Assembly (NCBI GenBank): GCA_050951805.1
Contig: JBMNJT010000008.1
Coordinates: 320,001-384,000 of the forward strand
DNA: 64,000 nt
Reading direction: 5' to 3'
DNA from: Bacillota bacterium
GTDB lineage: Bacteria; Bacillota; DTU025
The position numbers and the translations under genes are program-made. Of the stretch, positions 11,860 through 17,699 are shown one piece after another (position 1 is the first letter of the stretch; each line of letters starts with the position of its first letter). Below the pieces are notes generated by a model. It ran no database searches. It was not told where the DNA came from and saw nothing but the letters and a program-made list of their open reading frames with translations.

Positions 11860-12684
11860 TATTTGGGCTTTTCGGCATGAAACAGTTGATCATGCCGGAG
11901 AATCACAATGTGCCACGTAATCCTTCAATTCCTCGATGGACTCACCAGTAGGTGTTCGAAGTCCGTTTTCCGCCAGCAATGTTTGGCAGTTCTTGGTCCT
12001 ATCAACCTGCTTCAGGTTCTCGATTTGCACTTTCTACTCTCGCAATCAAAGGGAGACAATGCAGATACTTGGGGCTTCGTTTGAGTTCAATCTTGCCTAG
12101 GTCAAGGAGTATCGACAGAACTAAGAAAGGGACTGGAATATGTTCATCGAATGAGGCGCCGGCATGTGCGGTGACATGAATCCTTTTCGTAGCCTTGGCG
12201 CAATCGCTAATGGTGTGGGAGTGGAATCGGGCTCATTGACGGCGCTGATGCAGCGGTGAAAATCGTCTACAAACGGATCCGTGTCGCGGGCAAAGTTGGG
12301 CTAGCCATGTGTACGCTTCCTCTCCTGGTGTGACACGTTAGTATTACTTGCATACGGGCTGAGCTTTTGATTTTGTGGTAGTGCGTGAATTCTCCGGTCA
12401 CAGCGGGGAGCGCATCATGCTTGCTGCACCTGCCTGTTCTTGGGGAGCAGACTCCTGGCGGTTTTCCTCCTTTCTTTAATGCGTCGGCGATGCGTGTTGA
12501 TTTGATAGGATGGAGCGATTAATGCGGGTCGGACTCCGCTGTTGCCTGCGAAAGCCTGTGTTGGTTGCTTTGTGTGAAGGCATGCGGAGCGTTGCTATGC
12601 CGGGACATAGGCTGCTGCACAGGACCAGTGTTTTGCAGGAAAGCATGCCACTTGAATTTGTTCACGAATGGCTGAAATTGATTC

Positions 12685-12713
12685 TTGGCAAGGCGGGTCG
12701 GCTTTGATATAAT
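12685..12713 (+). promoter_or_regulatory. sigmaA promoter for the T-box leader
   Basis: TTGGCA-17bp-TATAAT with extended TG. Confidence 0.8.
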
Positions 12714-12736
12714 AACAGCCAATAAGCATACAGCAC

Positions 12737-13030
12737 AAAGACGATGACCGAGAAGAAGTAGGACATGACGTAGGCCCGACAGAGAGTTCCCGGCTGGTGT
12801 GAGGGGCGGGGTTGTTATGTCTGAATACATCTTGGTAGTCGCTCACCCAAAGGCGCATTGACGCCCGGTAGGCTGAGACGGATTCACCCGTTACAGTGAT
12901 AGAGTATCGCGCACTATTAGCGCCGTACTTGAAAAGGCCGGCAACGCGAGTTGTCGGCAAATTGAGGTGGTACCACGGGATTTGGCGCTCGTCCTCTTGC
13001 TAAGGCAGGGGACGGGCGCTTCTTGCTTTC
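12737..13030 (+). ncRNA. T-box riboswitch, Tyr (UAC) specifier, transcriptional type
   Basis: Stem I with GA motif, AGUA (12757), AGAGA (12781), GGUG loop, GAA-UAC-A specifier loop (12823-12829); T-box AATTGAGGTGGTACCACGG (12960-12978); terminator GGCGCTCGTCCTCTTGC-TAAG-GCAGGGGACGGGCGCT-TCTT. Confidence 0.92.
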
Positions 13031-13090
13031 CCCGCAATATGGGCGTGCTGGCGCCAAAGGGCACTCCCAAGTTAAAGGAGTGTATTTTTG

Positions 13091-14539
13091 ATGGCAAACG
13101 TAAGGTTCTTCACAGATCAGCACTTGCCCCTGGAGATGCACAAGGTGCGTATCGTACAGAAGCTGAATCTTCCTCCTATCGAGCGCAGGCTAGAGGCTAT
13201 CACCGAGGCAGGAAACAACACATTTCTTCTTCAGAATCGGGACATCTTTCTGGACATGCTCACAGACAGCGGGGTCAATGCCATGAGCGATCAGCAGTTG
13301 GCGGCGATGATGATAGCTGACGACAGCTATGCAGGCTCTGAAACTTTCACCAAGTTGGAAAACAAGGTGATCGAGCTTTTCGGCATGCCTCACTTTCTCC
13401 CTGCCCATCAGGGACGTGCCTGTGAGCATATTATTGCGTCAACCTTGGTTAAGCCCGGCAATGTCGTGCCGATGAACTTCCACTTTACTACCAGCAAAGC
13501 GCATATTGTTAGATGTGGCGGCATCGTTCGCGAGCTACTGATCGACGAGGGCCTCAAGCCTACAAGCGAGTTTCCGTTCAAGGGAAACGTTGACCTGAAC
13601 AAGCTGAGGCAGGTAATTGAGGAGGAGGGAGCAGGCAACATACCATTTGTTCGGCTGGAGGCGGGCACAAACTTGATTGGCGGGCAGCCTCTCTCGTTGG
13701 AGAATGTCCGCGAGGTTACGGCAGTCTGTCACTCCAACGGCATCCCAGTCGTACTCGATGCCAGCCTTCTTCAGGACAACTTGTATTTCATCCACGAGCG
13801 TGAGGAAGCATGTAAAGATATGAGCATACGAGAGATCACCCGTGCACTCGCCGACGAGGTGGATGTCATCTACTTCTCCGCGCGCAAACTAGGCTTTGCA
13901 AAGGGCGGAGGGATCTGTATCCGCGACCGTGTCATGTTCGAGAAGATGCGGGAGTTGGTACCCCTCTTCGAAGGTTTCTTGACATACGGCGGCATGTCAG
14001 TGCGGGAGATGGAGGCGATTGTGGTCGGACTTGACGAAACAATGGATGAGGATGTAATCTCCCAGGGACCACAGTTCATCCAGTTCATGACCGATGAGCT
14101 TCGCAGGGCCGGCGTGCCGGTTGTCACCCCTCCTGGAGGGCTGGGATGCCATCTAAATGCAATGGAATTTCTGCCTCATGTAGAGCAAGGCCAGTATCCC
14201 GCCGGCGCACTGGCGTCCGCGCTCTACATTGCTGGTGGGGTGCGAGGAATGGAGCGTGGAACCATGAGCGAGGCGCGCGAGCCTGATGGCAGAGAGGTTT
14301 TTTCTCAGATGGAACTGCTGCGTCTTGCGATGCCGCGACGCGTCTTCACACTCTCTCAGGTTAAATATGCGATCGACCGCATCATCTGGCTCTACGAGCA
14401 CCGGGATCTGATCGGGGGGTTGACCTTTGTTGAAGAACCGGCGATCCTCCGCTTTTTCTTCGGCAAGCTGAAACCCACTTCGGATTGGCAAACTGATCTG
14501 GCGAAGGCTTTTCGAGAGGACTTCGGGGACAGCTTGTAG
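13091..14539 (+). CDS. tpl: Tryptophanase/tyrosine phenol-lyase family PLP beta-eliminating lyase with TPL-type residues
   Basis: 'DMLTDSG', 'DDSYAGS', 'HQGRACE', PLP Lys in 'FSARKLG', 'TYGGM'; TPL-type 'HFTT', 'MERG', 'LRFF'. Confidence 0.85.
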   Translation: MANVRFFTDQHLPLEMHKVRIVQKLNLPPIERRLEAITEAGNNTFLLQNRDIFLDMLTDSGVNAMSDQQLAAMMIADDSYAGSETFTKLENKVIELFGMPHFLPAHQGRACEHIIASTLVKPGNVVPMNFHFTTSKAHIVRCGGIVRELLIDEGLKPTSEFPFKGNVDLNKLRQVIEEEGAGNIPFVRLEAGTNLIGGQPLSLENVREVTAVCHSNGIPVVLDASLLQDNLYFIHEREEACKDMSIREITRALADEVDVIYFSARKLGFAKGGGICIRDRVMFEKMRELVPLFEGFLTYGGMSVREMEAIVVGLDETMDEDVISQGPQFIQFMTDELRRAGVPVVTPPGGLGCHLNAMEFLPHVEQGQYPAGALASALYIAGGVRGMERGTMSEAREPDGREVFSQMELLRLAMPRRVFTLSQVKYAIDRIIWLYEHRDLIGGLTFVEEPAILRFFFGKLKPTSDWQTDLAKAFREDFGDSL

Positions 14540-14761
14540 TGGATTGGATATTTCCACATATCCTGGGGCCAAGACGGGTTCGGGATACCCGGATGTGCAC
14601 GTCCCAAGGCTGTTAGGAATCGATTGGGCTCCACCGCGGGGGAAGGCTTGGTTAACAGCCGAACTCTTGCAGGCCACGGCAGGGAAGGGGCGGGTTCTGT
14701 GCCTTGAAACTAGAGGATGTGGCACCTGAGCTGAAGTGGGCGTACATGCATCGATCAATCT

Positions 14762-14793
14762 GGGGGCGTGAACCATGCGGAGTTCGCGCCCCC
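14762..14793. terminator. Hairpin between convergent genes
   Basis: GGGGGCGTGAAC / GTTCGCGCCCCC; no clear U-tract. Confidence 0.45.
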
Positions 14794-14852
14794 CAGGGTA
14801 GGTTCAGCTGCCACAAGATCTCGGCTGCTCAACTCTGCACTGCACGTAGAGA

Positions 14853-15389
14853 CTAGAAACAGTATCCAAGGCTGACGCCGTATACTATTCCGCCTTCCTC
14901 CAGCTTCTTATCGATTATGAAGGCTTCATATCCGACCTCGCCTGCAAAGCGTATCTTGTTGAACATCATCTCCAGACCAGCAGTGGCCTGTAGACCAGGG
15001 AGTGTTGCCGAAGCGCCCATTGCATTGGCGATGAGGGCGGTTCCGCTGACCCCGACGTAAGGATTGAAATCTCCGAGCATGACATAATACCTGGCTCCGA
15101 GAGCGGCACTGTACAGACCAATGTCGACGGTAGGCCCGTCATCTACTTCCGCCTTAAGGAAACCAGCGGTGCATGCGGCAGCGATCGCAAACCCGTTATC
15201 GAACCTGTATTCCAGCTCGAGACCAGCATTGATGCCAGGATAAGCTAAGGCAAGGTCGCCAACGGCTCCCTTGTACTTTGCGCCGATAAAGGTGCGGCTG
15301 TTTGCCGACGCTGAAGTGGCCAATCCAAGAAGAAGGACCAGTGACAGGGCACATGACACCAGTAGTGTGCTGCGAGACTTCACTTGCAT
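14853..15389 (-). CDS. Outer-membrane beta-barrel protein (OmpW/OmpA-like, ~8 strands)
   Basis: Signal peptide ending ASA-N; alternating strands 'AGLELEYRF', 'LGARYY', 'FNPYVGV'; C-terminal 'SLGYCF'. Confidence 0.8.
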   Translation of the reverse strand: MQVKSRSTLLVSCALSLVLLLGLATSASANSRTFIGAKYKGAVGDLALAYPGINAGLELEYRFDNGFAIAAACTAGFLKAEVDDGPTVDIGLYSAALGARYYVMLGDFNPYVGVSGTALIANAMGASATLPGLQATAGLEMMFNKIRFAGEVGYEAFIIDKKLEEGGIVYGVSLGYCF

Positions 15390-15969
15390 GACCTCCCAAA
15401 TAGGTAGTTGGTAGGATTGTCTAGGTTTCAAGAATCCAACAAGCTCTTGCGCTGGGCTGATGCAGACCGACTGCTGGTCTGTCCGCTAGCCCTGCGTCAA
15501 TACTACATTCTGCAATCACCTCCAGAATTCACGAATTATGGATGAAACAGAAGCAGTATATGTATGCCAATGCAATTCGGCAAAAGGGTTCCCGAACCTC
15601 CCGCACATGCGGCCTATAAATCGCCAGATGCATGCCAGGCATTCCCAGAAGCCATGTATAGCTGGCGCCCGTCGGAATACGTCAAATAGCGCGATAATTG
15701 GGGCAGCAGGATTGGCGGTGTGATAGCTCAAAAGACTCGTCTGGAGGTCCACCGGGTGAAGGGCTTGGATTCTGAGCTGATTGGAAAAACGCTACCGGAT
15801 TCATTCTCTCGTGTGGTGCGGAGGGGTGGCCCGAGACTTCATACGAACTAGGCAGGGCGATTCTGCAACTGCAGAGAGCAAAGAAGCGTGAATTCAATGA
15901 AAGGCAATTGAGTGTCTCATTGAGTGGAAGACGAAGAAAATACGGTGACGGACAATTATTAGACGGTCC

Positions 15970-16680: not shown

Positions 16681-16856
16681 GGCCAAGCCGCCTACGCAAT
16701 GCAGGTTCCAAGAGACTGGACGAGCCAACGCCGCCCGGATTATCGTGACGCGGGTGGCGGCATGTTGAGACATCAGTGGCTGCCTGATTGTGCTAAGATG
16801 CTTTTGGAGCATCACACATGTTGACGCTTCGGACGCAATGCTTGGGAGGAACTCAG

Positions 16857-17699
16857 ATGAGAACTGAGCAGGAGATGATGGGCCTGATTCTCGGCGTAGC
16901 GGCGGCCAATGAGCGCGTGCGCGCGGTGGTCATGAATGGTTCGCGCGCAGACCCCAACGCTCCCCGGGATATCTTCCAAGACTACGATATTGTCTACTAC
17001 GTGACAGACATAGATTCATATGCAGAAGACAGAAGCTGGGTCGACATCTTCGGCGAGCGAATGATAATGCAGATGCCCAAGTCCGATTGCTGCCTTGTCT
17101 ATCTCATGCAGTTCACAGACGGAAACAGGATCGATCTCACTTTGGTGCCTCTGTTCGAAAAGCAGGAATTCAGCACAAAGGACAAGCTTGCAGTGGCCTT
17201 GATGGACAAGGACAATGTTCTTCCACCATTGCCTTCGCCCACAGATGAGGATTACTGGGTACGACCGCCGTCCCGTCAGGACTATGATGAGTGCTGCAAC
17301 GAGTTCTGGTGGGTGGCTGTTTATGTGGCGAAGGGGCTGTGCAGGCGGGAGATTCTTTATGCCAAATGGCGCCTGGATAGAATCGTAAGGGAGATGCTCC
17401 TTCAGATGTTGGAGTGGGAGGCCGGCATAGCGACTGACTTCTTGGTGAGCATGGGCAAGTGCAGGAAGCGCCTCGAGGCGCATTTACCTGAGGAACAATG
17501 GCAGGCTCTGTTGCTTACGTATGCAGACGGAAGCTATGAGGGCACATGGAATTCGCTGTTTGCAGCGTGCGATCTGTTTCGTCAGACGGCGAAGTTCGTG
17601 GCTTCGCACTTTGGCTATGAATATCCGGGCGGCGACGATCAACGCGTCGGCAAGCACTTGGAGTGGCTACGGGATCTCTGCGCGTCTTCCGGCGTGTAG
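16857..17699 (+). CDS. Aminoglycoside 6-adenylyltransferase (ANT(6)/AadK family)
   Basis: 'MRTEQEMM', 'MNGSRADPNAPRDIFQDYDIVY', 'GNRIDLTL', 'CCNEFWWV..YVAKGL.RRE'. Confidence 0.9.
   Translation: MRTEQEMMGLILGVAAANERVRAVVMNGSRADPNAPRDIFQDYDIVYYVTDIDSYAEDRSWVDIFGERMIMQMPKSDCCLVYLMQFTDGNRIDLTLVPLFEKQEFSTKDKLAVALMDKDNVLPPLPSPTDEDYWVRPPSRQDYDECCNEFWWVAVYVAKGLCRREILYAKWRLDRIVREMLLQMLEWEAGIATDFLVSMGKCRKRLEAHLPEEQWQALLLTYADGSYEGTWNSLFAACDLFRQTAKFVASHFGYEYPGGDDQRVGKHLEWLRDLCASSGV

Follow-up and report, generated by a model that had tools for sequence, protein, structure and literature searches.

A tyrosine T-box leader upstream of a tyrosine phenol-lyase-like enzyme points to a candidate phenol-to-tyrosine salvage route

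The window analysed here, a 64,000-nucleotide stretch of contig JBMNJT010000008.1 from a Bacillota bacterium, carries a gene for a PLP-dependent beta-eliminating lyase (P0001), which is the sole gene behind a T-box leader (Table 1). The genes around it (ApbE, an ABC-2 permease, an adenylyltransferase and an Fpg-like protein) are unrelated.

Table 1. Features of the lyase locus in the window
Feature	Position	Strand	Basis
Sigma-70-like promoter, TTGGCA (-35), 17-nt spacer with TG, TATAAT (-10)	12685..12713	+	Motif scan
T-box leader (stem I, specifier loop, stem III, antiterminator)	12735..12999	+	RF00230 covariance match
Specifier codon UAC (Tyr) in GAA-UAC-A	12826..12828	+	Sequence and model alignment
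Antiterminator bulge UGGUACC	12968..12974	+	UGGU (12968-12971) pairs with the tRNA 3' end ACCA
Intrinsic terminator, hairpin 12984-13020 and U-rich tail	12984..13029	+	Folding
Ribosome-binding site AAGGAG, 10 nt 5' of the ATG	13075..13080	+	Read from sequence
PLP-dependent beta-eliminating lyase P0001, 482 aa, TPL-sister clade; ATG at 13091, stop at 14539	13091..14539	+	ORF, Pfam, tree

The leader matches the T-box covariance model RF00230 over its full length (cmscan; model positions 1-219, 106.9 bits against a gathering score of 93, E = 1.3e-22), in agreement with an earlier note on this DNA, which had described a complete tyrosine T-box. The UAC triplet falls on the model's specifier position, with GAA at 12823-12825 before it and a purine, A12829, behind it, and the genome encodes a matching tRNA-Tyr(GTA). 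This tRNA, the only tRNA-Tyr in the genome, ends in ...CCTCTCC-A-CCA; its discriminator A, followed by CCA, matches the bulge U of the T-box sequence GAGG-UGGUACC-ACGGG, as the earlier note had expected from A73. The tail UCUUGCUUU lies directly 3' of the terminator hairpin, and the segment 12975-13040 folds at -33.6 kcal/mol (z = -4.76), with none of 200 shuffles equally stable, so the terminator proposed earlier stands; a simple terminator scan of the window did not list this hairpin. The 5' arm of the terminator and the 3' strand of the antiterminator have the segment CUCGUCCUC in common, making the two hairpins mutually exclusive. Eleven T-boxes occur in the genome, and only the one described here has a UAC specifier; the others precede thrS, leuS, serS, valS, hisS/hisZ-like, metF-like, cysE-like and further genes, all named by reading their translated ORFs alone.

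In our view the lyase gene forms an operon by itself, governed by a T-box that senses tRNA-Tyr and acts through transcription termination. With tRNA-Tyr charged, the terminator would form and transcription would end; with uncharged tRNA-Tyr, the anticodon GUA would pair with UAC and the free ACCA end with UGGU, which would stabilise the antiterminator and let the gene be transcribed. Leaders of the B. subtilis tyrS type belong to the same RNA family and share the UAC specifier and the terminator/antiterminator design. In the B. cereus group, according to the available part of PMC2494555, a Tyr T-box likewise controls a non-canonical tyrosine-forming enzyme, phenylalanine-4-hydroxylase (PAH), which converts Phe to Tyr. 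The present leader differs from both the tyrS and the PAH leaders in the gene that it controls, a lyase of the tyrosine phenol-lyase (TPL) family.

The protein scores 170 bits against the Beta_elim_lyase family (PF01212; gathering threshold 27), its PLP lysine Lys266 aligning with Lys257, and its best PDB matches are TPL chains (2ez1, 1c7g and 9j3u; E 1e-115 to 1e-111). Three motifs that the earlier note had called TPL-type do align with Thr124, Arg381 and Phe448 of TPL: HFTT (131-134) with Phe123-Thr124 of 2ez1_A, MERG (387-390) with Met379-Glu380-Arg381 and LRFF (453-456) with Arg447-Phe448-Phe449 of the same chain. In P0001 these positions are Thr133, Arg389 and Phe455, as against Asp, Ile/Leu/Val and His in tryptophanase-type representatives. 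Across the clade to which the protein belongs, the TPL substrate residues Tyr71, Phe123, Thr124, Asn185, Asp214, Lys257, Met379, Arg381, Arg404, Phe448 and Phe449 are invariant; those among them that the structural literature on TPL marks as substrate or catalytic residues (Tyr71, Thr124, Lys257, Arg381, Arg404 and Phe448) are the same in 12 of 12 clade sequences checked.

This clade is tight and widespread, with 67-86% identity across 80 species genomes from several phyla, and it is large (8000 database matches scored; 562 species-genome stretches). Cultured carriers of an orthologue include Miniphocaeibacter massiliensis, a Pseudoflavonifractor isolate and Desulfitispora alkaliphila. It lies on a long branch of the enzyme tree as the sister of canonical TPL, with support of 100 for the clade alone and 98 for the clade together with TPL, as expected from the TPL-type rather than tryptophanase-type affinity suggested earlier. 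Public sources label its members 'tryptophanase' or 'tyrosine phenol-lyase', so the earlier guess about misnaming was sound. That the enzyme is a tryptophanase is hardly credible: the usual database name and the NCBIfam subfamily model NF009709 'tryptophanase' (588 bits for P0001) favour it, but the specificity positions carry Thr, Arg and Phe, the tryptophanase equivalogs are missed (TIGR02617, 338.6 against 825.8 bits; NF053783, 388.5 against 750), the clade is sister to TPL, and the T-box reads Tyr and not Trp. TnaA (EC 4.1.99.1) has the same fold family, but the clade enzyme shares only 37-39% identity with it.

With TPL (EC 4.1.99.2; Citrobacter freundii, Erwinia herbicola) the clade has the Pfam family and the catalytic and substrate residues in common, but it differs in identity (~42%), in its PLP site, in Met288>Phe, in its terminal extensions and in a T-box predicted to respond to Tyr starvation. 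At about 20 positions the clade has an invariant residue that sets it apart from every canonical TPL or tryptophanase representative, among them Arg217>Leu, Lys256>Arg, His343>Leu and Thr183>Gly. The two PLP-site changes, Arg217>Leu and Lys256>Arg (Leu226 and Arg265 in P0001), are shared by 95% or more of 81 clade sequences, whereas no canonical TPL or tryptophanase-type representative compared has lost Arg217 or Lys256. The clade also has an N-terminal extension of ~9 residues and a conserved C-terminal tail of ~22 residues, and P0001 stays below the cut-off of the TPL equivalog TIGR02618 (446.3 against 720.7 bits), which a canonical representative, P0137, passes at 733. Given the invariant differences and the missed TIGR02618 cut-off, the chemistry of the clade may not be that of TPL. 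These same substitutions, the C-terminal tail, the long branch and the failure to reach either equivalog cut-off would fit a different reaction or substrate, still serving Tyr supply or Tyr-related stress; the PLP-site changes might have altered specificity, for example towards another phenolic or beta-substituted amino acid. We regard this as unlikely but deserving of real weight, as all ring- and hydroxyl-binding residues of TPL are kept, the only one-step route to Tyr in the family is from phenol and aminoacrylate, and the specifier is always that for Tyr.

Tyrosine T-boxes ahead of orthologues, which the earlier note had proposed to look for, recur beyond the window. Among 80 GTDB species-genome loci, the stretch immediately before the orthologue holds a T-box that reaches the Rfam cut-off in 14 cases and one at E <= 1.1e-8 in 6 more, two of these 6 being cut by contig ends. 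UAC T-boxes are thus found at 20 of these 80 loci; the window adds one and relatives from its order another 8, all of them Bacillota. The AAUAC motif is invariant in 15/15 aligned leaders, 6/6 further leaders and 8/8 relatives, the last group carrying GAAUACA and UGGU throughout. At 60 of 81 loci (22 in Bacillota, together with all those in Proteobacteria, Spirochaetes, Acidobacteria and others) a T-box went undetected, 40 of the 60 having been screened by motif regex only; there the role of the clade could be catabolic. One locus, L022, was rejected as a T-box locus, having a weak motif match and no T-box at E <= 0.001. As for other regulators, 20 non-T-box Bacillota loci gave no Rfam match at or above the gathering score, and 9 of them none even at E <= 0.1. 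No family of neighbouring ORFs within 3 kb of the 81 loci is common to more than four of them (all-against-all BLAST, alternative-frame ORFs inside the lyase gene excepted), and Pfam assigns 10 neighbours of non-T-box loci to unrelated families.

The pattern bears on whether the enzyme is an ordinary catabolic TPL whose T-box link is incidental or follows some other logic. Enterobacterial tpl is induced by tyrosine via TyrR. A catabolic reading is favoured by the TPL-type residues and by the many tyrosine-making genomes in which the clade has no T-box; we nevertheless find it improbable, as destroying Tyr while tRNA-Tyr is uncharged would be counter-productive, the link persists in 29 leaders and on at least 7 branches of the enzyme tree, the canonical TPL paralogues of the same relatives have no T-box, and the carriers are often Tyr auxotrophs. 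Upstream of five canonical paralogues in relatives (two TPL-type, three tryptophanase-type) there was neither a T-box nor any other Rfam match (0/5), and two genomes, G087 and G090, carry both a canonical TPL-type gene and a T-box-linked gene. Two distant homologues within the order (family f4, 52% identity; G092, 67%) likewise lack an upstream T-box.

The window's genome (97% complete) has no match to PF02153, PF01264 or PF00800 and is without prephenate dehydrogenase (tyrA), chorismate synthase and prephenate dehydratase, the kind of gap in tyrA and the shikimate pathway that had been suggested as a check; the same searches gave matches in 14/14 control genomes. Neither PF02153 nor PF01264 was found in any of 12 genomes of the window's family. 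Among 81 genomes, tyrA is absent from 11 of the 21 with a T-box; of the 60 that have no T-box it is absent from 4, and of the 22 Bacillota in that group from 1. The Fisher p values of this comparison overstate the association because related genomes are not independent, and absence calls outside the window's family are weakened by MAG incompleteness. As tyrA is present in the other 10 of the 21, the enzyme is not merely a substitute for the pathway. A gap specific to Tyr was considered and rejected: five T-box genomes keep chorismate synthase and are without tyrA, but they also have no prephenate dehydratase, so the gap concerns Phe and Tyr together and not Tyr alone. No UbiD-family decarboxylase was found in the window's genome, and phenol would therefore need an outside source.

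All the computational checks that the earlier note had put forward favour its interpretation, although we infer the function of the enzyme from regulation and gene content only. A leader predicted to respond to Tyr starvation, in carriers unable to make Tyr, implies that the enzyme probably runs backwards, and on balance we favour the view that the lyase is a tyrosine-forming enzyme induced by Tyr starvation and using phenol. Being a sister of TPL that keeps the residues holding the phenol ring and its hydroxyl, it would act synthetically in cells to give L-tyrosine. Phenol might be joined to an aminoacrylate derived from pyruvate and ammonium, by reversal of the alpha,beta-elimination, or to one derived from serine, cysteine or an S-substituted cysteine, by beta-replacement. 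The reaction of TPL can run in either direction, and the enzyme forms Tyr from phenol and S-methyl-L-cysteine (PMC6061101); within E. coli cells it turns catechol into DOPA (PMC11758808). For anaerobes of digesters and sludge, many of them unable to make Tyr, phenol salvage would offer a second source of Tyr beside uptake. In a more specific version, the clade would have specialised as a 'tyrosine synthase': the sister lineage of TPL, re-tuned by Arg217>Leu, Lys256>Arg, His343>Leu and the C-terminal tail, would be induced by uncharged tRNA-Tyr and would use phenol, which other fermenters discard, as a cross-fed precursor of Tyr for aromatic-amino-acid auxotrophs of anaerobic communities. This we hold tentatively, as a little short of an even call.

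T-boxes sense uncharged tRNA regardless of cause, and TPL-family enzymes accept ring-substituted tyrosines, both of which would suit an enzyme that removes a Tyr antimetabolite (for example an analogue blocking TyrRS) and is induced as charging of tRNA-Tyr falls. We consider that a long shot, as nothing specific speaks for it and the enrichment among tyrA-less genomes would be left unexplained. The favoured reading, synthesis of tyrosine from phenol, resembles indole salvage by stand-alone TrpB2, in which a PLP enzyme joins a fermentation end-product to a three-carbon amino acid unit; the logic is the same, and the fold type and family are different. A parallel indole salvage in the window's genome was considered and rejected, the genome having no trpB, trpB2 or trpA.

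The main survey of T-box regulons is said to be that of Vitreschak et al. (2008, RNA). In the literature searched we found no report of a T-box on a TPL or tryptophanase gene, no account of physiological phenol-to-tyrosine salvage and no published biochemical or genetic characterisation of clade members, so the earlier statement that no described case was known agrees with our search; the gene could be listed in the regulon tables that accompany PMC2494555 and PMC3766115. The available part of PMC2494555 does not mention a TPL-family lyase under a Tyr T-box, the terms looked for are absent from PMC3766115, PMC2700814 mentions a T-box for leuA only, and the parts available of PMC12980246 and PMC7461572 hold nothing bearing on the clade.

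If the proposed role is true, a phenol-salvage route to Tyr would be added to bacterial amino-acid metabolism, and the T-box regulon would gain a member found through regulatory logic instead of homology. It would explain how digester Clostridia without the shikimate pathway meet Tyr shortage, and would connect bacteria that release phenol with others that take it up, as partners in cross-feeding. Metagenomic estimates of indole or phenol production, such as those in uremic-toxin work, would also be miscounting the clade. Were the 'tyrosine synthase' version to hold, thousands of database 'tryptophanases' would be consumers of phenol, not producers of indole or phenol. The enzyme could also serve as a biocatalyst for tyrosine analogues.

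The promoter described in the earlier note fares less evenly than the leader: the motif is there, with 11 of 12 matches, but the scan finds one site where shuffles give 1.5 +/- 1.3, so the promoter alone does not stand out from chance. X15, X16 and X19, three runs that come from two studies, have RNA contigs starting at 12734-12742, a weak hint in favour of its position; 12500-12730 is uncovered in all four metatranscriptome runs, although uncovered bins prove nothing. In X17 and X19 the leader contigs (ending at 12978-12992) stand at a depth of 11-24 and the ORF contigs at 2.7-6.3, which we do not take as a sign of attenuation, because contig depth cannot rank the parts of a gene. RNA contigs from the digester metatranscriptomes X15 (12738-13272) and X16 (12734-13413) span leader, terminator and ORF, and the stretch turns up in runs from anaerobic digesters, sludge and wastewater.

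The leader preceding the lyase gene is a conventional T-box of the transcription-termination type. As the earlier note had claimed, it is complete, carries a tyrosine specifier and ends in a terminator. The terminator hairpin shares sequence with the 3' strand of the antiterminator, and the stretch that holds it folds far better than shuffled sequence (z -4.76; 0/200 shuffles as good). Since the single tRNA-Tyr gene of the window's genome (contig C8, anticodon GTA) ends in A-CCA, the leader is matched at both anticodon and discriminator, in line with the proposed pairing of the bulge U with A73. This is the sole UAC T-box among the 11 T-boxes of the genome, and tyrS is absent from the 11 genes that they control. 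The lyase gene stands alone; the downstream ORFs are convergent or unrelated, with no same-direction gene next. Elsewhere in this genome, ARAGORN places a tRNA-Ala(GGC) gene (L004:1585-1660, equal to G000:C2:1489358-1489433, minus strand) inside, and on the same strand as, the unusually long leuS T-box leader (G000:C2:1489274-1489614, 341 nt), an odd arrangement if genuine.

Features of the lyase locus and its surroundings, in window coordinates
Feature	Position	Strand	Evidence or detail
Extended -10 promoter, near-consensus	12685-12713	+	Motif scan; scan alone no better than chance
T-box leader, complete	12735-12999	+	Rfam covariance model, 106.9 bits vs gathering score 93, E 1.3e-22
Specifier loop GAA-UAC-A	UAC at 12826-12828	+	Read in T-box leader
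Antiterminator bulge UGGUACC	12968-12974	+	T-box sequence, usual antiterminator fold
Terminator hairpin, 16 pairs	12984-13020	+	Followed by UCUUGCUUU
AAGGAG site	10 nt before ATG 13091	+	Sequence
Lyase ORF P0001, 482 aa	13091-14539	+	Pfam beta-eliminating lyase
ORF convergent with lyase gene	14853-15431	-	No family match
ORF, PF04439 (streptomycin adenylyltransferase family)	16818-17696	+	Strong Pfam match, 380.6 bits
Fluoride riboswitch RF01734	25190-25263	+	35.1 bits, barely above gathering score 34

Near-identical DNA occurs in anaerobic digester, sludge, wastewater and bioreactor runs from 10 studies, some of which may be the assembly's source, and six metatranscriptome runs (three studies) also contain near-identical sequence. 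RNA contigs of four runs were mapped over 12500-14800. Two of these contigs span leader, terminator and ORF (12738-13272 and 12734-13413); thus, read-through transcripts exist in situ. Three runs, drawn from two studies, have contigs that start at 12734, 12738 and 12742, and no RNA contig of the four runs covers 12500-12730; these starts fit the predicted promoter, though weakly. Also of note, RNA contigs, which carry no strand information, extend beyond the lyase stop codon (14540-14800) into the stretch that precedes the convergent ORF.

The T-box link is conserved within Bacillota. Relatives of P0001, the lyase, are encoded in 562 stretches (one genome per GTDB species), the best 80 of which are 67-86% identical to it, and candidates were picked by screening the 700 nt preceding each of these 80 loci for a motif. 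Rfam T-boxes at or above cut-off were found in 14 of the 20 loci of the first scan. Six weaker ones came from seven re-scanned loci (E 2e-18 to 1.1e-8; two clipped by contig ends), and 20 further Bacillota loci had none; the other 40, mostly from non-Bacillota phyla, were covered by the motif screen alone. AAUAC is invariant in 15/15 aligned stem I regions and present also in the six weaker leaders. Across the 21 genomes of the window's order, every orthologue found at at least 79% identity has a T-box upstream (G000, G081, G082, G084, G086, G087, G088, G090 and both copies in G093), with GAAUACA and UGGU in all eight leaders fetched. The search for Tyr T-boxes upstream of orthologues, suggested earlier, came out positive within Bacillota. 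Mapped onto the enzyme tree, the T-box requires at least seven changes; 19/21 T-box genes lie in one 52-sequence clade, which also includes proteobacterial, spirochaete, acidobacterial and other copies. The non-Bacillota copies seem to have been transferred from Bacillota without the T-box. Three almost identical clade genes (L042, L069 and L070; end branches 0.005-0.03) come from MAGs labelled Enterobacteriaceae, Verrucomicrobia and Lentisphaerota, suggesting either very recent transfer or mis-binning.

'Tryptophanase' is the name that a broad NCBIfam subfamily model gives P0001 (588 bits), and the protein falls below the equivalog cut-offs for both tyrosine phenol-lyase (TPL; 446 vs 720.7 bits) and tnaA (338.6 vs 825.8 bits). 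TPLs account for all its top matches among solved structures (E 1e-115 to 1e-111, ~42% identity), with tryptophanase structures ranking lower (1e-94 to 1e-82). Relative to the TPL chain 2ez1_A, it retains Tyr71, Phe123, Thr124, Asn185, Asp214, Lys257, Met379, Arg381, Arg404, Phe448 and Phe449. We take Thr124, Arg381 and Phe448 to be the residues telling TPL from tryptophanase, a distinction borne out among 50%-identity representatives: tryptophanase-pattern sequences have Asp, Val-Ile/Leu and His at these sites, whereas in P0137, a canonical TPL-type representative scoring above the TPL equivalog cut-off (733 bits), they are Thr, Met-Arg and Phe. The TPL-type residues and the tnaA score make a tryptophanase identity very unlikely, in keeping with the earlier note. 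Judged by its sequence, P0001 lies outside the TPL equivalog and would nevertheless work like TPL.

The best 120 matches in a large protein collection are 71-100% identical to P0001 and almost all 482 aa long; the next full-length neighbours at 50% clustering lie at 61%, 49% and then about 43%. In a maximum-likelihood tree of 61 sequences, the clade groups with the 61% and 49% neighbours (support 100), and the sister of this group is canonical TPL (98), which agrees with the divergent clade postulated before. About 20 private invariant substitutions are common to 81 clade sequences and absent from 26 canonical TPL and tryptophanase-type sequences, among them Arg217>Leu226, Lys256>Arg265, Thr183>Gly192 and His343>Leu351; the canonical enzymes also lack the clade's conserved C-terminal tail (...W-Q-x-x-L-x-x-x-F-x-x-D-x-G-D-S-L). 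Because Arg217 presumably adjoins O3' of PLP, by homology with aspartate aminotransferase, its replacement suggests that the clade's chemistry may be tuned differently. Separately, P0123-P0127, P0131 and P0133-P0135 (~850-930 aa, two family-matching stretches each) are tandem-duplicated or fused TPL/tryptophanase-like proteins.

Several relatives also have ~40%-identity paralogues: two are canonical TPL-type, keeping Arg217 and Lys256 with 60% identity to P0137, and three are tryptophanase-type. Neither a T-box nor another Rfam match lies within the ~1 kb fetched upstream of any of the five. Two genomes (G087 and G090) encode both the clade enzyme, linked to its T-box, and a canonical TPL-type one, and this coexistence argues for different roles. 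The 52%-identity homologue in family f4 of the window's order is not itself preceded by a T-box; one lies ~1.3 kb downstream of it (L092:4274-4529, L093:3358-3613), with a GAA-UGG-A (Trp) specifier, read for L092 alone, and precedes an ORF whose N-terminus resembles a lipoprotein signal.

The suggested absence of tyrA and shikimate genes held in part. Searches that match 14/14 control genomes find no prephenate dehydrogenase, chorismate synthase or prephenate dehydratase in the window's genome (2.75 Mb, 97% complete). Prephenate dehydrogenase and chorismate synthase are found in 0/12 genomes of its family, so their absence characterises the lineage rather than reflecting a gap in the assembly. 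Among the 81 genomes, tyrA is missing in 11/21 with the T-box, compared with 1/22 Bacillota and 4/60 genomes overall without it (Fisher p 5.7e-4 and 2.2e-5, both overstated, since shared ancestry makes the genomes non-independent; MAG completeness is also not established). Chorismate synthase is also missing in six of the 11; the other five keep it and have neither the Phe nor the Tyr branch enzyme. These five carriers (G002, G006, G020, G035 and G068; loci L013, L017, L031, L046 and L079) have a chorismate pathway without prephenate dehydrogenase or prephenate dehydratase. The presence of tyrA in 10/21 T-box genomes counts against a simple auxotroph story.

T-boxes activate supply genes in response to the uncharged cognate tRNA. 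Digesters are ammonium-rich, with phenol present from tyrosine fermentation. For an enzyme of this PLP family, one-step formation of Tyr would be possible only by joining phenol and aminoacrylate. Described Tyr T-box targets include a transporter, the tyrosine operon and phenylalanine-4-hydroxylase (PMC2494555). Canonical TPL reversibly forms Tyr from phenol, pyruvate and ammonia, performs beta-replacement from S-methyl-cysteine (PMC6061101) and acts synthetically in E. coli cells (PMC11758808). Taking supply logic, one-step chemistry, reversibility and setting together, we lean towards the earlier proposal of a tyrosine-starvation-induced phenol-to-tyrosine salvage enzyme, in which uncharged tRNA-Tyr would cause the T-box to switch on the lyase, and phenol would be joined to a three-carbon donor to give tyrosine; the clade's PLP-site changes may favour this direction. 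The pairing of a Tyr T-box with a TPL-family enzyme appears new, as does the physiological direction it implies; no description of the pairing was found in full-text searches that covered the main text of articles other than the principal T-box regulon survey. The finding is surprising, widespread and directly testable.
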